A stretch of 64,000 bases of DNA from Escherichia phage vB_EcoM-P3322, in sequence record PV191315.1; one strand, given 5' to 3'. The stretch's first letter is position 1. Each line of letters begins with the position of its first letter. The position numbers and the translations under genes are program-made. The notes under the pieces are model-generated. The model was not told where the DNA came from, made no database searches, and saw nothing but the letters and a program-made list of their open reading frames with translations. Of the stretch, positions 8,222 to 60,674 are shown in pieces.

Positions 8222-8632
8222 ATGTCATTAGTAAATACTACAACTTGGGCTACCGTAAGCATGTCTACTGTAATGTCTACCCCTATCTGGAAACTAGAAT
8301 CAAATAAACACAATGGCAATATCCCACACGAGAAACAAAATGCTGTTATTAGAGCGTCGCTTGTAATGCTGGGTATGGCTGAAGATTCACACTATTCTGT
8401 TGAGCGTAATGTGAATATCCGAAGCAATAACGATAAGCGAGTAGTGTTTGCAAATACAACGCTTTTCACTTTCCCTGTTTCACCTAATTGTGGTTTTAAA
8501 CGAATCTATCAAGAAAATGATATTTTTCATTTTGGTGATGAAGAATTTACAGGTTGGGGTGCGTCACATATTAAGATGGATGATTTCGGTAACTCTTATG
8601 ATCCTGCGAAAGCAGATGATACTAATCAATGA
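8222..8632 (+). CDS. hypothetical protein
   Basis: ATG 8222 after AAGGAG; track start 8189 lies inside the leader hairpin. Confidence 0.6.
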   Translation: MSLVNTTTWATVSMSTVMSTPIWKLESNKHNGNIPHEKQNAVIRASLVMLGMAEDSHYSVERNVNIRSNNDKRVVFANTTLFTFPVSPNCGFKRIYQENDIFHFGDEEFTGWGASHIKMDDFGNSYDPAKADDTNQ

Positions 8633-8899: not shown

Positions 8900-11140
8900 T
8901 TGATTCGTTTTGTAACTAAATCTAACGGTAAGACAGAGGAGTTTAATCCAGAAAAACTTCGCAAGTGGTCTGAATTTGCAGCAGGTAAACTAAACTGGTC
9001 TGAAATTGAATTAGAAGCTGTGAAGCGGTGTTATGACGGTGTGTCTACACGTGATCTGCATAAAGCAATGATTGCAGCGTGTATTGACAAGAAAACACAA
9101 GCTTACAGTGATATGGCAGGAAGACTTCTTCTTGGTATGATTTACAAACAGGCTCATGGGGGATACCACAGTATCCCTTCACTGAATACCTTTTATCATG
9201 ATATGGTAGAACGTGGACATTGGGCTAAAATGGATTATACTGATGAAGAGATCAAAGAAATCGGTAAGATTGTAAAGCATAATAAAAATCTAACTTATGG
9301 TTATTCTGTTTTACGTCAGATGGTAGATAAATATCTTATTCGAGATGCAGTAAACGATGTGGTGCATGAGTCTCCACAGTTTCTTTTCATTGGTATCGCA
9401 ATGAAGGTTATGGAGATCCAACCAAAAGAACGCCGTATAGAAGATATTAAAAAACTTTATACTTATGTTAGCGATCTTAAGATTAATCTGCCATCGCCGT
9501 ATCTGACAACTCTACGAACTCCAATCAAAGGAAGTGCGTCTTGTTGTTTATTCCGTGCAGACGATACAGCAGAGTCTTTAGCCATTGCTAATTACTTAGC
9601 TCATGAGTATACGTTGAATAACGCAGGTATTGGTGTTAATCTTCAAACTCGTGCCACAGGTCAAGGTGTTAAGAATAATCGTATTATTCATGGTGGTCTT
9701 CTTCCGTATCTGAAATGGATGGAAGATAGTGTTGGAGCTTCGAAGCAAGCAAGCCGTGGAGGTAGTGCTACAGTTACCTTTACCATACTTGAACCAGATT
9801 TCGACGATCTGATTCGACTGAAGAATCCAACAACACCTATAGATAAACGAGTAGACAAACTGGATTATTCTATTGTTGTTAACCGTTCGTTCTTGCGTCG
9901 AGCAGCAAAAAACGAAGATTGGATGTTAGTTAGTTGTGACGATGCTCCTGAACTTTATGAAGCTTTGTATAAAAGTGAAGAAGAGTTTGATGCAGTTTAT
10001 GACAAAGTAAGCCGTCGTCGCATTAAGAAAAAATTTGTTAAGGCTCGTGATCTTCTGACAGAGATTATTGTTCAACGTGCAGAAACAGGACGTATTTACA
10101 TGTTCTTTGCTGACAACGTTAACAACCATACACCTTTCCTGGATACGGTGTATCAATCAAACCTGTGTCAAGAAATCTTCTTACCAACTAAAGCTTTCCA
10201 TAGTATGCCGGATCTCTTTACTGGTGAGAATACAGAAGATCAAGAATTGGCTTTATGCTTCTTATCTTCTATTGTTGCTGGTCGTGTATTACCTGAAGAA
10301 TATGAAGATGTTGCATACTACACTGTATTGACAATTGACAACGTTATTGAAACAATGGATTATCCATTTAAACATAACGAAATAACTGCTAAAGCACGTA
10401 GATCTATTGGTGTAGGTATTACAAACTTAGCGCATTATTTGGCAAGTAATTTTGTAAATTATTCAGATGCTTATGCTAAAAAATTAATGCATGAACTTGC
10501 AGAACGTCATTACTTTTGGTTGGCAAAAGCCTCTCTGCGTCTGGCTAAGGAAAAAGGTAATGCAGAATGGATCGATAAGACCAAATGGCCTCAAGGTTGG
10601 CTACCAATTGACACTTATGCTAAAACAGTAGATAGTATCGGTAATTTTGATCTTAAAATGGACTGGGAAGGCTTACGTGCTGAAATCATTGAACAAGGTG
10701 GTATCCGTAACAGTGTCTTGGCTGCTATTGCACCTAATGAGTCCAGCAGTTTGGTAAGTAATACGACTAACTCTCTGTACCCTGTTCGTGATACTATTAT
10801 GTATAAACAAAGTCAGAAAGGTAGCGTATTATTTATTGTTCCAGATTACGAAAAACTGAAAATGTTCTACCAATCCGCCTGGGATACTCCGGCTAAAGAC
10901 CTTGCAGAAATGTATGGTATCTTTACCAAGTTTACGGACCAAGGAATTTCTTGTGATTCTTGGTTAGATTATTCTAAATTGGTAGGGGGACGTTTATCAG
11001 TTAAAGAAGAGATGAAATTTATTTTGAACTTTGCTAGACTGGGTGGTAAGTCATTGTATTACCTTAATAGTAGAACAAAATCAGCAGATTCTTTAGCACA
11101 AGAAGATTCTGATGGTGGTTGTGAAGCTTGTAAGATGTGA
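8900..11140 (+). CDS. nrdA: ribonucleotide reductase class Ia large subunit
   Basis: 746 aa colinear with E. coli NrdA incl. C-terminal redox cysteines (CEACKM); TTG start after GGAGGAG. Confidence 0.95.
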   Translation: MIRFVTKSNGKTEEFNPEKLRKWSEFAAGKLNWSEIELEAVKRCYDGVSTRDLHKAMIAACIDKKTQAYSDMAGRLLLGMIYKQAHGGYHSIPSLNTFYHDMVERGHWAKMDYTDEEIKEIGKIVKHNKNLTYGYSVLRQMVDKYLIRDAVNDVVHESPQFLFIGIAMKVMEIQPKERRIEDIKKLYTYVSDLKINLPSPYLTTLRTPIKGSASCCLFRADDTAESLAIANYLAHEYTLNNAGIGVNLQTRATGQGVKNNRIIHGGLLPYLKWMEDSVGASKQASRGGSATVTFTILEPDFDDLIRLKNPTTPIDKRVDKLDYSIVVNRSFLRRAAKNEDWMLVSCDDAPELYEALYKSEEEFDAVYDKVSRRRIKKKFVKARDLLTEIIVQRAETGRIYMFFADNVNNHTPFLDTVYQSNLCQEIFLPTKAFHSMPDLFTGENTEDQELALCFLSSIVAGRVLPEEYEDVAYYTVLTIDNVIETMDYPFKHNEITAKARRSIGVGITNLAHYLASNFVNYSDAYAKKLMHELAERHYFWLAKASLRLAKEKGNAEWIDKTKWPQGWLPIDTYAKTVDSIGNFDLKMDWEGLRAEIIEQGGIRNSVLAAIAPNESSSLVSNTTNSLYPVRDTIMYKQSQKGSVLFIVPDYEKLKMFYQSAWDTPAKDLAEMYGIFTKFTDQGISCDSWLDYSKLVGGRLSVKEEMKFILNFARLGGKSLYYLNSRTKSADSLAQEDSDGGCEACKM

Positions 11141-29393: not shown

Positions 29394-29401
29394 ACCACTC
29401 A

Positions 29402-29425
29402 AGGGGCTTCGGCCCCTTTCTTATT
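29402..29425 (+). terminator. rho-independent terminator
   Basis: aggggc-ttcg-gcccct then tttcttatt. Confidence 0.7.
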
Positions 29426-29436
29426 AGGAGAATAAA

Positions 29437-29709
29437 ATGACTGAAGAAATCCGTGATTACTACCTTGCACATTACGTTTACTACTTTGCTAATGCTACAC
29501 AAAAAGGGGAAGGTAATCTTTACTTGGCAACAGGACATGGAACAGGCGTTAGGAAATCAAATATTGATAATGCCTTGGCTCAAGTGGCTGCGGGGCTAGA
29601 AGATAAACTTCAAACACCTGTAGTTGTAGTGATGCAAAATATAAGTTACCTAGCAAGTTGTACTGAAACCGAATTTAACGCGTCTGAGACGCAATCTAAC
29701 GAAGAATAA
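29437..29709 (+). CDS. hypothetical protein
   Basis: RBS TAGGAG. Confidence 0.55.
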   Translation: MTEEIRDYYLAHYVYYFANATQKGEGNLYLATGHGTGVRKSNIDNALAQVAAGLEDKLQTPVVVVMQNISYLASCTETEFNASETQSNEE

Positions 29710-29712
29710 AAC

Positions 29713-29745
29713 AAAGGCACCCAAGTGGGTGCCTTTTCTATTTTA
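29713..29745 (+). terminator. rho-independent terminator at end of + strand block
   Basis: ggcaccc-aagt-gggtgcc then ttttctatttt. Confidence 0.65.
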
Positions 29746-29778
29746 GAGCGTCTCTGTTCGATTTAGGTGGGTTCTAGC

Positions 29779-30009
29779 TTACTTGTGTAGTGCTCTCTCG
29801 TATAACTCAATGATCAATTCATCCTCTACTGTAATACGCGCCATTTGATCCGTCTTAAGTATTGTTGGTTGGTAGTGGTGCATTTCACTATTGATACTGC
29901 AATCCCATTCGTCATAACCTAAATACTCTCCTACATGGACCTTAACCATAAAGGGAAACGGGTTATCTACCAAAAATGCCATACAACCTTCTTCGATTTT
30001 ATTTAACAC
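29779..30009 (-). CDS. hypothetical protein
   Basis: Track ORF; first gene of minus block. Confidence 0.45.
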   Translation of the reverse strand: MLNKIEEGCMAFLVDNPFPFMVKVHVGEYLGYDEWDCSINSEMHHYQPTILKTDQMARITVEDELIIELYERALHK

Positions 30010-30034
30010 ACGACCTCCTATTGCTACAGATATG

Positions 30035-30055
30035 AAAAAACCCGCCGAAGCGGGT
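30035..30055 (-). terminator. rho-independent terminator (minus strand)
   Basis: aaaaaa-cccgc-cgaa-gcggg on + strand = hairpin+T-run on minus. Confidence 0.65.
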
Positions 30056-30100
30056 TCTATTGCTACGATAGGATCACTATCCTATAGTATTGTTTCTGTG

Positions 30101-30382
30101 TCAAGCCTTAGCGTAGAAAAACTTCTCATATTCAGATTTTGTTACGATTGTGGGGCAACCTTTTGTTCCATCCTCGATAACAGGGGCTTCTACCATTCTG
30201 GTGTTGAATAAGCAATAAGTTCCACGCATGTAAATACCCAGTTTTGTTTCTACGATGTGCTCTTTACTTACGCTTGAAAACTTAATCTCACCATCGGAGT
30301 CTCTTATAGCAATAAGCGCATGTTCGGGCCAATCTTTTCCTTTTGCTCCTAAAGCATTATACAATTCTTGAACGAGTTCCAT
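30101..30382 (-). CDS. hypothetical protein
   Basis: RBS AAGGAGG. Confidence 0.6.
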   Translation of the reverse strand: MELVQELYNALGAKGKDWPEHALIAIRDSDGEIKFSSVSKEHIVETKLGIYMRGTYCLFNTRMVEAPVIEDGTKGCPTIVTKSEYEKFFYAKA

Positions 30383-30394
30383 ATGACCTCCTTA

Positions 30395-30568
30395 TTAAAT
30401 AACAAATTTTTCTTCTTCTGGCTTATCGTAATCTGGAGAATAAACATGTGCGGGATTAAAACCTTTAAAATTTCCGCGACCTTTACGTGGACAGTTGAAT
30501 GTGCGAGCTTGATGATCCCCAAAAGATTTCCCACAATGCATACATTTAAAATCAGTGCGTTTAGTCAT
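30395..30568 (-). CDS. small zinc-ribbon protein
   Basis: ATG 30568 after AAGGAG; CMHCGK...CPRKG. Confidence 0.5.
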   Translation of the reverse strand: MTKRTDFKCMHCGKSFGDHQARTFNCPRKGRGNFKGFNPAHVYSPDYDKPEEEKFVI

Positions 30569-30588
30569 GCCATATCTCCTTTTAAAAG

Positions 30589-30611
30589 GCTGCACCTATT
30601 GAAGATGCAGC
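30589..30611 (-). other. intergenic hairpin (terminator/attenuator-like)
   Basis: gctgca-N11-tgcagc inverted repeat. Confidence 0.35.
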
Positions 30612-30620
30612 TTTGATAGA

Positions 30621-30722
30621 TTATTTAGATGAGTCTAAAATGTCTTTTACTTTTGCCGTGATAACGTCTTGATATTTGTTAATAAGATAGCCTACAACTA
30701 CACCTACGATAAATGAAACCAT
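30621..30722 (-). CDS. small hydrophobic peptide (33 aa)
   Basis: Below track threshold; RBS GGAGAAATA; MVSFIVGVVVGYLINK. Confidence 0.3.
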   Translation of the reverse strand: MVSFIVGVVVGYLINKYQDVITAKVKDILDSSK

Positions 30723-46438: not shown

Positions 46439-46813
46439 TTATTCAAAGCAAACATTATTTGCATCTTCAATTCTGTCTTTCACCCATTGAAGACGTAACG
46501 TGTTGGTATGACACGCCAAGTTTATACACTCTGAAAGGTAATCCATGCAATCTGCATTGAACGGAAGATTGTAGTCCAGCCCTGCACATGTAAACTGTTT
46601 CCTCATTTCGTATTTCAAACTATCCAACAAACGATCACGCCATCTTTTATCTTCTTCTCTGGTTGTCTCACCAACAAAATCATCTACATAATCTACCAGA
46701 CAACCACATAAGCCACTCGTTGTGCGATTCATTGCAGGATAGTTGGCAATCCATGCTTTATAGAAGCGAAGCAATGTTGCACTACTCAACGGAATATTTT
46801 TACTCTCTTGCAT
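46439..46813 (-). CDS. paralog family A member (N-terminally extended)
   Basis: RBS GAGAGGAG; FYKAWIANYPA...GLCGCL...PFN...RLQWVKDRI. Confidence 0.6.
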   Translation of the reverse strand: MQESKNIPLSSATLLRFYKAWIANYPAMNRTTSGLCGCLVDYVDDFVGETTREEDKRWRDRLLDSLKYEMRKQFTCAGLDYNLPFNADCMDYLSECINLACHTNTLRLQWVKDRIEDANNVCFE

Positions 46814-48434
46814 GACAATCTCCTCTCATCGTTAGCCATCTTTCATGGCAATCATCAATCACCAACATCATACGATCAATCTCAGGGAATTACAATCGAA
46901 TTATCATAGGGGATTCCTATCAATTATCCCATATATACCGATTATTTTTGACACCCCACTCTTGTATAAAAAGTAACCCAAAATATCTACGGGGAGAGAT
47001 TATTTCGGGACACCCTGTTTCATGGCAATCATGGCAAGAATATCTAATAGAATCAATATCATATGGCAAAAATCATGACGCATACGTAAGAAGTGCTTAA
47101 CGCGAATTTTCGGGCCGTCAGGTCCACGCAGCGACAATTCCCAAATATCATGAGAATGAGAATAATTATCATTCGTATTCAATGACTTATGCAAGGCTCA
47201 TGCCAACATAGCGACAAGGTGGGCCACTTGATTATAAATCACACAAACACTTATTTATCAATAGGTTGGCAACTTCATCATATGACGGAACATTGTCAAC
47301 TGATCCCGCTCATGACAAGCAGACTATTATTTATATGAGAATGATTATTATTTAAACGTTTATTAACATAAAAATTAAAATAAATCAAGAATTTTCTGAT
47401 TTTATTTACGTTTAAGAGAAGATGCTCAACATCCTACCGGATCGCCGTTGGCAATCCTCGGATATTTACGCCCCCATGATTAAGGTTTATCTCTTTTCTT
47501 AGTGCTCAACATTCCCGCCCGTGGCGGTAACATTTCGCCCCCAAAATTATTGCTTTTTATTCTATTATGTGCATAGTGTGCAATGTATCGGAATGATGAT
47601 AATCATCCTCCCATTGCCCCCATAATTATTGCCATGCTAATGATTTCATCTTGTAATTACCACAATGATTATTGTTATTGCGCTAATGTTATGATCTTGG
47701 TAATTACATATAATGCTAATAATAAGCCAGCGCAATAAGTGTAAGCGTCATTACGCTTGCAATTATTGCAAGCTACGCAGTAACAAGAAATAACCATCAC
47801 CGATGGTTATGATTGTTGGGGTGTAGTTGGCTTATTATTAGCTCGCTATGTGTCCGGCATAGCGTGCTAATGATGATCCTGGGAATGATTCGTTTTGTAA
47901 TGATTTCATTCAGTCACTATTATGGCAATAGTTATTATTTTAATGGTTTCGTTTGTTATTGTTCGTTAGTTGGTTGTTTTGTCGTGTTATCGTTATCTTG
48001 CTTAGTATTCATCATGGTTTGATTGTTTGTCGTTATCAATCATCTTGCTATTATTCCTTTGATTATGATTAGTTTGCTTATTGTTTTAGGTTGTTGGTTA
48101 GTTAGTTGTTGCGAACTATTATCAACATTATAGTTATGCACTTATATTGCATAGATAAACATGGATAGATGATAATGGTTATCATTGAACTAGAAAAGAG
48201 GTAAAAGGGTGTTTTTGATGGTTTGTTGTTGGTTGTTGATCGATTTTAACCGCTATAAATGGCTCTCTAACAGCCTGTTACCCTGGGAGGTATGGTTATT
48301 CGTTTAATGGTTGATTAGCTCGATACCGCGATTTATTCAATTTTGTTCTGTGTCGGTTTTTCATAGGCGAAAGCTATCAACATTGTTCGGGCAAAAAGAA
48401 AGGGCGCTTGGTGCGCCCCTTGTTTTGTTGTCGC
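46814..48434. other. 1.6-kb ORF-poor region with iterons, palindromes and a GT-skewed tract; candidate origin/packaging/regulatory region
   Basis: No convincing ORF; direct repeats gctaatg..atcttg.taattac; perfect palindrome gcttgcaattattgcaagc; GT-rich low-complexity 47930-48130. Confidence 0.5.
48398..48429 (-). terminator. bidirectional hairpin terminator (copy 1 of AAGGGCGC-N5-GCGCCCTT)
   Basis: aaagggcgc-ttggt-gcgcccctt flanked by T/A runs. Confidence 0.6.
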
Positions 48435-48854
48435 TTATAACGCTTCATAGATTGAGTAGATCCGGTTTGCCAGATCATTACGAAAGCGGAATTTTTCATC
48501 ACGTTTGATCATCAGATCCTTAAAACCGCATTCTTTCAGTGCTTCATTAACTTTATGGCGGCAAACGTTCATATTATCCTGCGCGTCACCAATAAACTTA
48601 TTGCTGTGATGCATTGCTTTGATCTCTTCCTCTAATACCAGGGCAACTACACGGATCGGATCAAGCTGATATGCGGTAACATCCATGCGGCATTGTAGAC
48701 GGCTTTTAACATCGTTTACCGGATATACTGCAACCTCTTCCCCGTCAACGTTCACAATAACCAATTTACCATCGATTTCGAAGCCTTTGGCGGCGCTACC
48801 GTGACAAAAAGCGTTATCGAAGGAGTAAGCTGGATTATTTGATTTAATGTTCAT
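48435..48854 (-). CDS. hypothetical protein
   Basis: ATG 48854 after AAAGGATAA; track start 48938 lacks RBS. Confidence 0.55.
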   Translation of the reverse strand: MNIKSNNPAYSFDNAFCHGSAAKGFEIDGKLVIVNVDGEEVAVYPVNDVKSRLQCRMDVTAYQLDPIRVVALVLEEEIKAMHHSNKFIGDAQDNMNVCRHKVNEALKECGFKDLMIKRDEKFRFRNDLANRIYSIYEAL

Positions 48855-48894
48855 AGTGTTATCCTTTGTTTCGTTGTTTGCTGCCAGTGAATTA

Positions 48895-48923
48895 AATATA
48901 ATATAACGCCGATCCCCTGTCAA
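48895..48923 (-). promoter_or_regulatory. sigma70-like promoter embedded in palindrome
   Basis: rc: TTGACA-17nt-TATATT; -35 flanked by atcccct/aggggat inverted repeat. Confidence 0.5.
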
Positions 48924-48959
48924 TAGGGGATAGCGCATTATTTACATTTCTTTACGTTA

Positions 48960-53468: not shown

Positions 53469-53529
53469 GGGGCGCGGCACCATTGCCGCCCTACACGATA
53501 ACTATAACACAATGTAAAACAGGGTCAAC
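53469..53529 (-). promoter_or_regulatory. PeSL-like unit
   Basis: hairpin gcgcggcaccattgccgccc; rc TTGACC -35. Confidence 0.6.
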
Positions 53530-53731
53530 CTTTATTTTTCCACGGTGTCAGCTTGTTAATCATTGGTGATAAATAGCGTTTACCAACGTAAAACAGTACG
53601 CCAACTGATGCAACGGCGGCGACCTCATGCATAGCCGACGGGAAACGGGTATCATAATAAGATCCAATAATAGCAATAGCGGCAACGGCTGCAACGTCGA
53701 TAATGATTTTCTCTTGTTTTGCGGTGATCAT
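53525..53731 (-). CDS. small two-TM membrane protein
   Basis: RBS AAAAAGG; hydrophobic segments. Confidence 0.55.
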   Translation of the reverse strand: MITAKQEKIIIDVAAVAAIAIIGSYYDTRFPSAMHEVAAVASVGVLFYVGKRYLSPMINKLTPWKNKG

Positions 53732-53750
53732 AGTATTTACCTTTTTGTAT

Positions 53751-53811
53751 GGTGGGGAACTATTCCCCGCCTGATGTAATACAGTTTAACAGGTCCGGTT
53801 ATGGTGTCAAC
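53751..53811 (-). promoter_or_regulatory. PeSL-like unit
   Basis: hairpin ggggaactattccccgcc; rc TTGACA at 53804-53809. Confidence 0.6.
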
Positions 53812-53816
53812 CACTT

Positions 53817-54002
53817 TTAAAGATATTTTATGCTAATGACGTTTTCAGGTTTTACCTTGTTATAATGTGCATCAACATAGATCAAACCATCGTCAGAAAA
53901 GCCCAGGATCACGCCCTGCGCGATAAAACCGTACTCGTCACGGTAACGCACGGCTATTTTTAATGTTGCGTTGTAGGCTGTTTTAAGCTCGTTTAAAGTC
54001 AT
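53817..54002 (-). CDS. hypothetical protein
   Basis: RBS AGAGGATAA. Confidence 0.55.
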   Translation of the reverse strand: MTLNELKTAYNATLKIAVRYRDEYGFIAQGVILGFSDDGLIYVDAHYNKVKPENVISIKYL

Positions 54003-54029
54003 TTTTGTTTATCCTCTACATGTAAAAAG

Positions 54030-54051
54030 AAAGGGCGCTTGATGCGCCCTT
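54030..54051 (-). terminator. hairpin terminator (copy 3 of AAGGGCGC-N5-GCGCCCTT)
   Basis: aaagggcgc-ttgat-gcgccctt. Confidence 0.55.
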
Positions 54052-54057
54052 GTTATG

Positions 54058-54204
54058 TTAATCCTCTAAATCCATCCAATTATATTTGTCACTCTTCCCG
54101 CGCTTTGTTTTATTACGCTTGTCACCTTTGCGGATCACTTCCTCGTTCCAGGCCTTGCGGATCTTGGAAGATTGAATTTTTTCTGCGCGATTAGATGTAT
54201 TCAT
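54058..54204 (-). CDS. small basic protein (48 aa)
   Basis: Below track threshold; RBS AAGAGGAAAC. Confidence 0.4.
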   Translation of the reverse strand: MNTSNRAEKIQSSKIRKAWNEEVIRKGDKRNKTKRGKSDKYNWMDLED

Positions 54205-54220
54205 TTTGTTTCCTCTTTAT

Positions 54221-54279
54221 ATGAGCGGCACCATTGCCGCTATATTGTTAATTTAAACTGTTTTGTAAAATTGTCAAGG
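54221..54279 (-). promoter_or_regulatory. PeSL-like unit
   Basis: hairpin gagcggcaccattgccgct; rc TTGACA at 54272-54277. Confidence 0.6.
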
Positions 54280-54283
54280 TTTA

Positions 54284-59330: not shown

Positions 59331-59603
59331 GATCTTAACTCCAGGTGATGAATGATGTTTTTTGTTGGTGGACGGTGGATTATGGAGATCCTCACCTTTG
59401 CCCGTCCTGCATTGCGCCCTCCTGTTGTTTATTGTCGTTGTGCCGCGCCCCCCTCGACAAGATGAATACTACGCTACCAGGCGAGGAACGTCAACCACTT
59501 TTTCAATCTTTTTTATTTTCTTTTTGCTTGCTATATATAAAGGAAAGGGCTATCATCTTTCTACCGCGCCAACCAGGGCGCACAACAAAGAAAGGGCGAC
59601 ACC

Positions 59604-59870
59604 ATGACAAATACTACATTACACCTTATGCACTCATTGGGCTGGCAAGGCGGCACGGTGCACCAGGTAGCAAGCGCAACGGGCTTAAAGGTTGAAACAG
59701 TTCTCAACCTGGGCGATCATAAGGTGGAAGAGATAGACCATTTTGATCCGTTCGCTGATGGTTATTTATGGGCTTGCAGTGGCGGCGGGGAAAGCAAGAT
59801 CCCACCAGGGGCGCGGGGCGATATGCATTTTTGGTTAGGTGTCCTTTCCTGGCAAGAAAACAAAAAATAA
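59604..59870 (+). CDS. hypothetical protein (isolated + strand ORF in GC-rich island)
   Basis: Track ORF with non-repetitive sequence; weak RBS. Confidence 0.3.
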   Translation: MTNTTLHLMHSLGWQGGTVHQVASATGLKVETVLNLGDHKVEEIDHFDPFADGYLWACSGGGESKIPPGARGDMHFWLGVLSWQENKK

Positions 59871-59872
59871 TC

Positions 59873-59901
59873 TTGACAAGCCCAGGGATCGGGCTTATAC
59901 T
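59873..59901 (+). promoter_or_regulatory. strong sigma70-like promoter with palindromic spacer, no downstream ORF
   Basis: TTGACA-17nt-TATACT; spacer agccc-agggatc-gggct. Confidence 0.55.
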
Positions 59902-59907
59902 GTTTTA

Positions 59908-60010
59908 CATACAGAAGAGGAAGCGCCACCCCACGGCGTAAAGGCGGGGCTAACATACCAGGGCGCTGGTTGGAAGGTTGATCGCCGGTAGGCTGGGCGC
60001 TATATATTTG
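59908..60010 (+). ncRNA. candidate small structured RNA
   Basis: GC-rich transcript from consensus promoter; no credible ORF; boundaries approximate. Confidence 0.25.
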
Positions 60011-60119
60011 TAAAGAAATGTAAAGATAAAATAATCGCTTGCTTTCCTGGCTGGATCTGTTATTCTTATTACATGGCGAGGGGACACGGGAGCGCGAGAC
60101 AAACACCGCCCCTGCGCGT

Positions 60120-60500
60120 CATTCTCTAAATGAGAATGATTATCATTTACCTTATCAAATAAGAATCAATCTCATTTATAAACCTAAATGCGAATCATTA
60201 TCATTTGCATTTCCATATGAGAACTCTTCTCATTCCCATCTGCATAAATTTTTGTAAACTTTAAATTTTGCTTTTGTACTTTCATTTTTGTAAAAGCAAA
60301 AAAACTTTAAATACTGTGGGCGCGCAAAATTTTTAAAATTTTCCTTGACTTTTGAGTTTTGTTTTGTATCTAACATTTTAAGATAATTTTCCTAAACTTT
60401 AAATTTTGGTTTTCAACTTTCACTTTTGTAAATTCTTAAAAAGTTTAAATAATTTGAGGAATTTTTGAGATAACAAGTAGGGGTAATTTGAGATAACCTT
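60120..60500. repeat. AT-rich iteron cluster
   Basis: Direct repeats aaactttaaattttgNttttNNactttcaNttttgtaaa x2; aatgattatcattt x2; tttgagataac x2. Confidence 0.5.
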
Positions 60501-60593
60501 TAATCTTATTGGCAGACCTTCAGGAACCCACCTAGATCGAATCCTAATGATGCAAACTGAAAAAGATAAGTGTTTGTATAGGACAAAATAATA

Positions 60594-60626
60594 GGCTCTC
60601 TACAGTGTTGTAGGAGCCTTATTTCT
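60594..60626 (-). terminator. bidirectional hairpin terminator downstream of NADAR gene
   Basis: ggctc-t-ctaca-gtgt-tgtag-gagcc flanked by T-rich runs on both strands. Confidence 0.55.
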
Positions 60627-60674
60627 GTGCTACAAAGTGACACCTTTGTTCTAAAAATGAAAAAAGTTAAAATA

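Follow-up and report, generated by a model that had tools for sequence, protein, structure and literature searches.

Positions 46814-48434 of the stretch of Escherichia phage vB_EcoM-P3322 analysed here (64 kb of record PV191315.1, hereafter the window) form a gap poor in open reading frames (ORFs), which very probably represents the control region of the concatemer junction, that is of the genome ends, of a phAPEC8-like myovirus with short direct terminal repeats (DTRs). The mapped ends and terminal repeats of related phages fall within this gap, and we therefore read it as the collapsed junction of the two virion ends; the two repeats would merge into one copy in replicating or assembled DNA and so give rise to the 1.6-kb gap. 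By its sequence, the source phage is a Phapecoctavirus (phAPEC8-like; Stephanstirmvirinae), with 95-98% identity over the region to other Phapecoctavirus genomes, in which the gap is kept. Every gene flanking the gap lies on the - strand and the right-hand operon is closed by a hairpin terminator.

The gap had first attracted attention in a reading of the DNA made without database searches (the original prediction), which described it as a stretch without credible ORFs in a tightly packed genome. This observation is confirmed: the gap is the longest part of the window without an ORF of at least 70 aa in any frame (1621 nt; the runner-up has 800 nt). None of its seven largest small ORFs matches a PHROG family, and almost all of ~140 related phage records leave it without annotation. 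The runner-up lies at 53484-54283. Four interpretations had been offered, a replication origin, a packaging site, a protein-binding hub or a long non-coding transcript, and this set is partly supported. What had been missed is that the palindromes of the gap are parts of one larger covarying fold, that its AT-rich 'repeats' are, as sequences, sites of the Fur-box type and that the region appears from its relatives to be a genome terminus.

Genome ends, terminal repeat and cut words

The strongest evidence comes from phages whose ends are known. In the record of phage Schickermooser the first 329 nt are identical to the last 329 nt (100%) and both map to 47098-47426 of the window; the terminal repeat of this phage has been given as 328 bp (PMC6563267; Korf 2019). 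In the phi92 record, DTR-L and DTR-R of 343 bp were annotated by the authors and the surrounding gene order is the same. The repeat of BME3 was found to be 342 bp by PhageTerm (PMC12210895), and Stephanstirmvirinae genomes end in direct terminal repeats according to a 2025 paper (PMC12695924). Both Schickermooser ends fall on a single interval of the window, giving one repeat copy per junction, and no 20-mer of the repeat recurs elsewhere in the window.

The ends of Schickermooser, phi92 and BME3, each determined independently, coincide at both edges of the repeat (BME3 is 1 nt off), and the two edges carry the same word, GCT|YAAC, in which the bar marks the cut. These edges read ggtGCT|TAACgcg and gtagGCT|CAACaaa in phi92 and agtGCT|TAACgcg and cttGCT|CAACatt in Schickermooser; the corresponding sites of the window are termed cut words A and B (Table 1). 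Five further linear records break at 47099-47107, and Mt1B1_P17, BI-EHEC and WPEC4 break at the word A position. Word A is invariant in all Stephanstirmvirinae lineages checked except phiWec188, and in seven lineages GCT|TAACGCG and GCT|CAACA are separated by 329-344 nt. The 64 kb contain TGCTYAAC at just five places, of which three are in the gap, and homology among phapecoctaviruses stops at 47432/47433. Judged by these relatives, in which fixed, sequence-specific and non-permuted ends have been shown, the phage belongs to the short-DTR class with T7-like packaging.

The cut word also predicts ends in unannotated relatives. Klebsiella phages PP357458, PP919962 and OP617743 were deposited as circular, and each of them has GCT|TAACGCG and GCT|CAACA at a distance of exactly 344 nt. 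Fixed ends and direct terminal repeats of 344 bp are therefore predicted for these phages. The BME3 record (PP239276.1) is odd in another way, as its first 788 nt recur near its end, the 342-bp repeat is found again in its last 342 nt and the annotated 'DTR-L' feature sits 73 nt from the record end; this arrangement is probably an artefact of record re-ordering.

With these ends, virion DNA would run in the - sense of the window. It would start at ~47426 with DTR-L (47426 down to 47098), followed by a 284-nt leader and the left-end genes, and its right end would consist of the right-end operon, the terminator (~48400), ~1 kb of non-coding DNA (48434 down to 47427) and DTR-R ending at 47098. 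Similarly, DTR-L of Schickermooser and phi92 is followed by a leader of 285-355 nt and then by genes on the + strand of the record. The leader of the window contains CATGGCAATCAT at 46844 and 47021 and a 24-nt tandem repeat at 46884-46928. Two sigma-70-like sites on its - strand, 47028 to 46999 (TTGCCA-18-AATAAT, 10/12) and 46895 to 46867 (TTGTAA-17-TATGAT), may function as promoters. In phAPEC8, ECO340P1, ESCO13 and Schickermooser an extra 345-nt gene (a homolog of phAPEC8 gp245) lies between the 369-nt gene and the gap; it is absent from this phage, so that the gap directly adjoins the 124-aa ORF at 46439-46813.

Around word A, a 76-nt unit is proposed as the recognition and cleavage signal of the terminase. 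A match to this cut-site unit (56-76 nt, 81-89% identity) is present in 233 of 5426 complete E. coli genomes, and it stops exactly at the start of the phage Fur box described below. The matches lie in islands of ~12 kb that adjoin tRNA-Leu or tRNA-Thr and encode a tyrosine integrase, a lambda O-like replication initiator, a DNA invertase, tape-measure-like and Dit-like tail proteins and a weak capsid-like protein; they also hold ~1.7 kb of unannotated DNA. In examples such as NZ_CP024257.1 (4518204-4530673) and NZ_CP025892.1 (~88000-93300) the unit copy abuts the DNA invertase gene. The cut-site unit is the only DNA that the islands share with the phage; when they were searched for the fold and the Fur cluster, neither was found. 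That phage and islands have the unit in common would mark it as a discrete functional site, and the islands may be a mobile element using the same terminase signal, either satellite-like or a prophage remnant. The packaging-site interpretation of the gap is thus supported on two sides, by the virion ends and terminal repeat that map within it and by a unit that recurs in a mobile island.

Satellites that carry the packaging site of a helper, such as P4 and the phage-inducible chromosomal islands (PICIs), are comparable to these islands in size, position next to a tRNA gene, possession of an integrase and a replication initiator, and a helper-like unit as the sole shared DNA. Unlike P4 and the PICIs, the islands encode tape-measure-like and Dit-like proteins and a DNA invertase, and no named satellite family was matched. 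The shared unit flags a candidate satellite family that may exploit these phages, which bears on the safety of phage therapy and on gene transfer.

The DNA on the far side of word B is a variable segment of tandem units. Relatives carry one to three of them, each opening with GCTCAACA, and the window has two (47423-47476 and 47503-47543), with a second TGCTCAAC at 47503-47510. These two units are the repeat pair 'tgctcaacat...cgccccc' of the original prediction, which is present as it was described. The length of the segment varies (78 nt shorter in phAPEC8, 69 nt shorter in ESCO13), and additional GCTCAACA units are found in muut, KP2025 and KP13-26. The segment is followed by what had been called tandem ~27-nt repeats or iterons. 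Two copies do exist (47635-47661 and 47681-47708), ~79% identical with one indel, but they start 46 nt apart and are not strictly tandem, and Tandem Repeats Finder made no call on them. The two copies form a mutual 11-nt inverted repeat (TGTAATTACCA / TGGTAATTACA). The TGCTAAT box recurs at 47714 and 47865 on the + strand and at 47842-47836 on the - strand.

Table 1 Features of the gap, in order of position in the window. A dot marks features to which no strand is assigned.
Feature	Position	Strand	Remarks
Leader, from terminal repeat to first left-end gene (ATG 46813)	46814-47097	-	Putative promoter-like sites, short repeats
76-nt cut-site unit	47079-47154	+	Last 19 nt of leader, GTGCT|TAACGCG, first 57 nt of repeat
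Cut word A, TGCT|TAAC	47094-47101	+	Cut 47097/47098; right terminus of virion DNA
Direct terminal repeat, 329 bp	47098-47426	.	Single copy in collapsed assembly; virion sense is the window - strand
Overlapping Fur boxes in repeat	47145-47176	.	Starts 47152 (16/19) and 47158 (14/19), 6-nt offset; dyad TGAGAAT-a-ATTATCA
IHF core consensus WATCAANNNNTTR, match TATCAATAGGTTG	47256-47268	+	Only match in gap
Most AT-rich 60-mer of the window, 90% A+T	47325-47385	.	Inside repeat; candidate easily melted patch
Fur box in AT-rich patch	47337-47355	.	14/19; Justusliebigvirus equivalent GATAATGATTATCATTTGC is 17/19
Cut word B, TGCT|CAAC	47423-47430	+	Cut 47426/47427; left terminus of virion DNA
Variable segment of tandem units	47427-47634	+	Each unit: cut word, short GC-rich hairpin, CGCCCCC end
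Former 'iterons', two copies of 27-28 nt, TGCTAATG...TAATTAC	47635-47708	+	Kept only among close relatives
Three-way-junction fold, ~160 nt	47713-47875	+	Covariation, RNAalifold, single-sequence folds
Outer stem	47715-47729 with 47828-47842	+	Closes three-way junction
Arm I	Pb 47732-47738 with 47763-47769; Pa 47740-47748 with 47753-47761	+	
Arm II	P4 47772-47778 with 47821-47827; middle helix 47781-47786 with 47813-47818; P2 47790-47798 with 47802-47810	+	
P3, 3' hairpin	47844-47851 with 47857-47864	+	
G+T-rich tract	47912-48130	+	C+A-rich on gene-sense strand
Promoter-like site between Fur boxes	48111-48189	+	Layout kept in every lineage
Fur box 1	48111-48129	+	Degenerate in this phage
Inverted repeat TATGCA / TGCATA	48135-48140 / 48148-48153	+	TATGCA-N6/7-TGCATA across lineages
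-35 TTGCAT, 18-nt spacer, -10 GATAAT	48147-48152, 48171-48176	+	-10 inside Fur box 2 (48165-48189)
Predicted transcription unit, ~245 nt	48183-48432	+	From Fur-flanked promoter to hairpin 48402-48418
Edge element	48315-48423	+	Invariant core CGATACCGCGATTTATTCA at 48321-48339; TCATAG-N7-CTATCA at 48361-48379
GC-rich hairpin terminator	48399-48430	-	Ends right-end operon; annotated in phAPEC8 and Schickermooser

A covarying fold beside the repeat

All three palindromes of the original prediction are exact (47755-47773, 9 bp+1+9; 47790-47810, 9+3+9; 47844-47864, 7+7+7), and they belong to a three-way junction in which a 15-nt long-range pairing encloses two of the inverted repeats. The stretch 47620-47930 was aligned with its counterparts in other lineages and with copies from IMG/VR and metagenomes, giving 20 distinct sequences, in which the inverted repeats are kept by compensatory changes. 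A first covariation count gave 98.4% of cells paired and 12 pairs changed on both sides, with a score of 0.222 compared to at most 0.064 in slid controls and with 0/500 shuffles reaching it. After realignment to the final model of 61 pairs, 95.8% of 1281 cells are paired, 18 pairs have changed on both sides and the score is 0.260 (slid controls at most 0.078; again 0/500 shuffles). The helices are also predicted independently by RNAalifold, and single-sequence minimum-energy folds give the same architecture in 20/20 copies, with an extra lineage-specific hairpin at the tip of Arm I in some of them. A covariance model finds one copy of the fold per genome, on the + strand, which is antisense to every neighbouring gene.

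The fold favours one strand. Its folding energy is -76.8 kcal/mol on the + strand (z = -11.1) and -60.9 on the - strand; its non-Watson-Crick pairs are all G:U on the + strand (~10% G:U, with six pairs G:U in most sequences) and properly aligned rows contain no A:C pairs. From this G:U pattern and these energies it follows that a single-stranded + strand species folds, and the covariation of this G:U-rich fold argues that such a species has a function. This species could be RNA or single-stranded DNA (ssDNA): ssDNA would give the same G:U pattern as RNA, and the G:U content favours RNA. Neither a conserved promoter upstream of 47713 nor a terminator after 47875 was found, and the position of the fold beside the repeat is fixed, for which reasons a role in cis is favoured. 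The fold is a candidate cis element for the replication or packaging of the ends.

Several alternatives for this stretch were rejected. A simple hairpin for palindrome 1 was replaced by Arm I, as forcing it costs 2.7-12 kcal/mol and its 'loop' covaries with an upstream segment, although the palindrome may still form as an alternative conformation. A TATAAT at 47709-47714 is not conserved and, as a promoter of the fold, would start the transcript inside the outer stem. At 47363-47392 (TTAACA-18-AAGAAT) the -10-like block is conserved but the -35 is not. Rfam 15 at gathering thresholds gave no match in the whole window, permissive Rfam scans of the gap and of 59-60.8 kb gave only chance-level matches and ARAGORN found no tRNA or tmRNA. 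Searches of plasmids, of the E. coli islands and of the ent locus gave no copy of the fold.

The corresponding gaps of 24-2-1 (1960-2200), Av-05 (1930-2205) and FBKp34 (1755-1945 of the stretches compared) are without the Stephanstirmvirinae fold. At the same relative position the gaps of Avunavirus and FBKp34 contain unrelated clusters of perfect inverted repeats with 16-27-nt arms, followed by a G+T-rich stretch and a Fur-box pair.

Fur-type boxes, a promoter-like site and the terminator

Fur-like sites were defined by at least 14/19 matches to the 19-bp consensus GATAATGATAATCATTATC, a 7-1-7 dyad (TGATAATnATTATCA). The gap contains seven of them compared to 0.31 expected, the best with 16/19 matches, and 0/300 dinucleotide shuffles reach seven. 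The remaining 62 kb of the window contain 13, and the enrichment in the gap is 20-fold. In 13 phages of five lineages the corresponding gap is likewise enriched, with matches up to 17/19. Per genome, the gap holds 5-10 strong sites, to which at least two at 60.1 kb are to be added; some match at 16-17/19.

The positions of these sites are conserved, with a cluster ~50-80 nt from word A, a site in the most AT-rich part of the repeat and a pair near the terminator side; two subfamilies have these Fur-type operators in common. In all Stephanstirmvirinae lineages the cluster in the repeat lies equally far from cut word A, and it reads TGCGAAT-c-ATTCTCA in the Klebsiella phages. Its sites overlap at a 6-nt phase, as in the Fur clusters of E. 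coli (PMC2189734).

Because circularity was to be avoided, recurrent words were derived de novo. Ranking of motifs by observed/expected was dominated by single-copy homologous blocks, and ranking by recurrence within gaps was used; the top words were ATGATAAT/ATTATCAT, TTATCATT, ATGAGAAT and GAATGATT. In a matrix made from the contexts of these words, the unseeded half regenerates the dyad. Applied to 26 kb of E. coli K-12, this phage-derived matrix has its top four hits at fepB-entC (twice), fepD-entS and fepA-fes, three Fur-regulated promoter regions that make up ~2.8% of the 26-kb locus. Since it ranks the ent/fep operators top, the phage motif is a Fur box at the sequence level, and the phage sites are in this sense equivalent to Fur operators.

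Compared with the Fur-repressed promoters of E. coli (fepA-fes, fepB-entC, fepD-entS, iucA and ryhB), the phage sites are alike in the 19-bp 7-1-7 dyad, the 6-nt overlaps and a box over the -10. They are unlike them in that they occur in a virulent phage, several of them within a terminal repeat and without an evident promoter, and in that the paired boxes, at a fixed spacing of 58-60 nt, flank a short inverted repeat. The literature consulted gave no report of Fur boxes in the genome of a strictly lytic phage. If Fur binds these sites, this phage would be a rare strictly lytic one that reads the iron status of its host or titrates the sensor, which would matter for how phages behave in the iron-limited gut and in infections.

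The only match to the IHF consensus in the gap is kept in four lineages within otherwise poorly conserved DNA. The consensus is not enriched window-wide (8 matches compared to 7.6 expected), and the site is therefore a weak lead based on its conservation. The protein-binding hub of the original prediction finds support at the sequence level, from the conserved, clustered Fur boxes and this one conserved IHF match.

The pair of boxes on the terminator side encloses a promoter-like site. Its layout is conserved, including in FBKp34, Av-05 and 24-2-1, with the boxes 58-60 nt apart, and the lineage variants read TTGCAT, CTGCAT or GTGAAT followed 18 nt later by GATAAT, AAGAAT, GAGATT or GAGAAT. At 48147-48189 a Fur box lies over the promoter in the same arrangement as at Fur-repressed promoters, as a matter of geometry only, and 48147-48176 is a putative promoter. 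A + strand unit of ~245 nt running from it to the hairpin is a plausible prediction. Within this unit, the edge element is 76-83% identical in Justusliebigvirus, the Klebsiella phages and Avunavirus. It was rejected as a structured RNA, as RNAalifold finds only the terminator hairpin (covariation term -0.1) and Rfam gives no match. A hydrophobic 32-aa ORF at 48209-48307, which has a plausible ribosome-binding site, was likewise rejected as coding, with stop codons in Schickermooser and phiWec181.

The terminator ends the right-end operon, whose last gene (48435-48938) is a homolog of phi92 gp248. Its hairpin is also readable on the + strand; the tail on the - strand, TTTCTTTTT, is invariant, whereas Justusliebigvirus has a poor T tail on the + strand. 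The promoter motifs annotated in phAPEC8 (TTGACA-N17-TAATAT, then a GC hairpin) proved to be unrelated to the Fur-like motif. At 8543-8599 and 9958-10010 of the phAPEC8 stretch (~50.7 and 52.1 kb of the window), ordinary TTGACA-N17-TAATAT promoters are each followed by one and the same conserved hairpin-forming motif, GTAGGGCGGCAATGGTGCCGC, which is annotated in phAPEC8 as a PHIRE 'promoter' and looks like a 5' stem-loop common to early transcripts.

A second ORF-poor stretch of the window, 59331-60674, also contains two Fur boxes of very good match, at 60126-60156 and 60184-60208, 58 nt apart. They read GCAAATGATAATGATTCGCATTTAG and GTAAATGATAATCATTCTCATTTAG on the - strand and flank a promoter-like site on that strand (TTGATT-18/19-GATAAT) that faces ~780 nt of ORF-less DNA. 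The part 59331-60106 is the most GC-rich of the window, and three 'aaaatttaaagttt' repeats lie upstream of the 60.1-kb promoter-like site. Only doubtful small ORFs are annotated in 59331-60674 of relatives, and Rfam found no match there.

Mechanism, competing readings and related systems

In the mechanism we propose, the terminase would recognise the 76-nt unit round word A and cut GCT|YAAC on both sides of the repeat, which would then be duplicated as in T7-type phages. The extra cut-word units beside the repeat could be auxiliary terminase sites or alternative cut sites. The fold would be a single-stranded + species next to DTR-R, either an RNA or the strand of DNA that a repeat end displaces on invading the junction, and may help to prime or process the ends. 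Host Fur, possibly together with IHF, would occupy the sites in the repeat and the promoter-like site 240 nt from the terminator, so tying the region to the iron state; the Fur-flanked promoter would make a short + strand RNA that is repressed when iron is plentiful.

A number of points weigh against this reading or parts of it. The ends of this isolate are transferred from relatives that are 94-98% identical, and its left end is ambiguous, at 47426 or 47506, because a second cut word is present at 47503. A phage protein with the same dyad specificity as Fur would give an identical sequence pattern, and no conserved sigma-70 promoter was found alongside the Fur boxes inside the repeat. The islands could share the 76-nt unit for some other reason, since it abuts a DNA invertase gene. 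The fold is without a conserved promoter of its own, the poor + strand T tail of the terminator weakens any reading that involves an RNA, and the hairpin clusters of Avunavirus and FBKp34 have no consistent strand preference, for which reason strand specificity is not generalised to them.

Three rival readings of the gap are not mutually exclusive. The first is that it holds one or more non-coding RNA genes acting in trans, the fold being a packaging, regulatory or anti-defence RNA and the Fur-promoter unit a RyhB-like, iron-repressed small RNA (sRNA). We take this as a real possibility, although one we tend against. The 18 compensatory pairs and the ~10% G:U on one strand are typical of structured RNAs, and the + strand as RNA is 16 kcal/mol more stable than its complement. 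The -35/-10 pair, with its exact 18-nt spacing and a Fur box over the -10, is kept across subfamilies, and a GC hairpin follows the invariant, unstructured core of 19 nt (48321-48339), the arrangement of sRNAs made of a seed plus a terminator. The same box-promoter-box layout at 60126-60208 also faces another ORF-less stretch. However, the RNA would belong to no Rfam family, the fold has neither a conserved promoter upstream nor a terminator after it, the 48402-48418 hairpin has no conserved T tail on the + strand and the edge element has no covariation. The fold moreover always stands beside the terminal repeat, which is better explained by a role in cis.

The second reading, a replication origin, is rather unlikely in our view, and it does not exclude a packaging role. 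Here the ~1-kb block beside the repeat would start replication, via an R-loop or primer RNA, as in ColE1 RNA II or T4 ori(uvsY)/ori(34), or via a + strand signal for priming or helicase loading in a recombination-dependent process, in which the 3' end of a repeat invades another genome. GC and AT skew both jump at the gap (GC skew from -0.182 to -0.086, AT skew from -0.030 to -0.095), with an origin-like polarity in which the + strand becomes richer in G and T rightward at unchanged gene orientation. This shift is the part that stands of the boundary drawn by the original prediction between an AT-rich and a GC-richer block; the GC contrast itself is weak (0.390 on the left, 0.404 on the right). 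The skew shift, however, falls where the physical ends lie and where the gene module changes, and either could be its cause.

The G+T-rich tract lies directly after the fold. The original prediction had called it 'almost only G and T', which is overstated, although it is the G+T maximum of the window: 200-nt windows starting at 47912-47930 have 72-73.5% G+T, compared to a mean of 50.5% (standard deviation 4.6) and a next best of 63.5%, which puts the maximum ~5 standard deviations above the mean (composition T 53%, G 19%, A 18%, C 10%). GTT, the triplet recognised by T4 primase, occurs at 10 per 100 nt in the tract compared to 2.1 elsewhere, a ~five-fold enrichment. The sequence of the tract is not conserved between genera, and a weaker G+T bias (0.58-0.69) is found in the gaps of other lineages. 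Further points for an origin are the most AT-rich 60-mer of the window within the repeat, the conserved IHF-consensus site and the strand specificity of the fold, whose + strand would be the one displaced on invasion by the left-end 3' terminus. Against it, the gap contains no DnaA box (TTWTNCACA), the 'iterons' are just two copies that are not conserved between genera and no similarity to plasmid or chromosomal origins or single-strand initiation (ssi) elements was found. An origin of the DnaA/iteron type was therefore rejected, in spite of the AT-rich patch.

The third reading takes the boxes as a Fur sponge, which would titrate host Fur as phage DNA accumulates and so derepress host iron uptake for the benefit of the phage; we judge this improbable. 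Multicopy Fur boxes do titrate Fur, as exploited in the Fur titration assay (FURTA), and the number of strong sites per genome, together with repeat-internal boxes that have no obvious associated promoter, would suit such a function. Two of the clusters have a conserved promoter geometry, though, suggesting ordinary operators, and a pure sponge would have no need of sites whose positions relative to the cut word are conserved.

It is hardly credible that the gap is decayed coding DNA, or low-complexity sequence arisen by chance, that provides no more than spacing: some records do annotate small hypothetical ORFs in the gap (seven in ETEC-TG, six in WPEC4), but these are without family matches and the 32-aa ORF is interrupted in close relatives, while two subfamilies retain the gap with its elements in the same order and the compensatory changes, conserved protein-site positions and mapped termini argue for function.

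The genome-end reading, in turn, places the gap beside several known systems. The closest are the DTRs of phi92, Schickermooser and BME3, which are at the homologous locus, 329-343 bp long and with the same aligned ends, in the same order of gp248 homolog, terminator, ~1 kb of non-coding DNA, DTR, leader and first gene. The concatemer junction of T7 and T3 is similar in its fixed ends, in a short repeat that is present once per junction and needs duplication, and in inverted repeats just inside the right end. A hairpin DNA intermediate of T7 is reported in PMC4281155, which cites Chung & Hinkle 1990, and taken to support primase-initiated duplication. Unlike T7 and T3, which are 40-kb podoviruses, the phage is a 150-kb myovirus. 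In this phage the same word brackets both edges of the repeat, Fur boxes lie both within the repeat and next to it, and a three-way junction of 160 nt, whose wobble pairs are specific to one strand, forms the structured element.

In lambda cos, the cleavage site cosN is accompanied by cosB, terminase-binding repeats with an IHF site, and P4 copies the cos of its helper. The gap is comparable in having a cleavage site, adjacent short repeats and a host-factor site in the first-packaged end, with the IHF-consensus match in the repeat. It differs in having direct repeats rather than cohesive ends and in an IHF site that is putative and proposed from its conservation. Finally, ColE1 RNA II, the T4 R-loop origins, G4-type ssi elements and the phi29 packaging RNA (pRNA) are single-strand priming or packaging elements of 100-550 nt with multiple helices, and pRNA is encoded next to a genome end. 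The fold is likewise a multi-helix single-strand structure near a genome end. Unlike them, it is a structure predicted from sequence, and it has no sequence or Rfam similarity to them.

That Stephanstirmvirinae have short DTRs is already published. The annotations and the literature consulted on these repeats give their existence and length. A cut word bracketing the repeat, units that repeat this word, a covarying fold, conserved Fur boxes and a match in islands are not mentioned there, and these five elements appear to be undescribed. DTRs are routinely reported for these therapeutically popular coliphages and the surrounding DNA is left blank in annotations, for which there is now a testable map. 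A more speculative reading joins all of these elements, and we consider it doubtful. Stephanstirmvirinae and Avunavirus would have wired Fur into their genome ends, with Fur-Fe(II) on operators in the repeat and at the promoter of a + strand small RNA. The fold, as RNA or ssDNA, would be required in cis for the ends to be duplicated or packaged, and the islands, as satellites of a virulent phage, would parasitise the terminase signal.

Two observations lie outside these subjects. Over the region, this coliphage shares 94-97% identity with phage records labelled Campylobacter, Acinetobacter, Pseudomonas and 'Dompiswa', which suggests wrong hosts or coliphage contaminants. At ~29400-30700 of the window, gene orientation changes from + to - and the cumulative GC skew peaks, marking a point of divergence or convergence of two large gene blocks.

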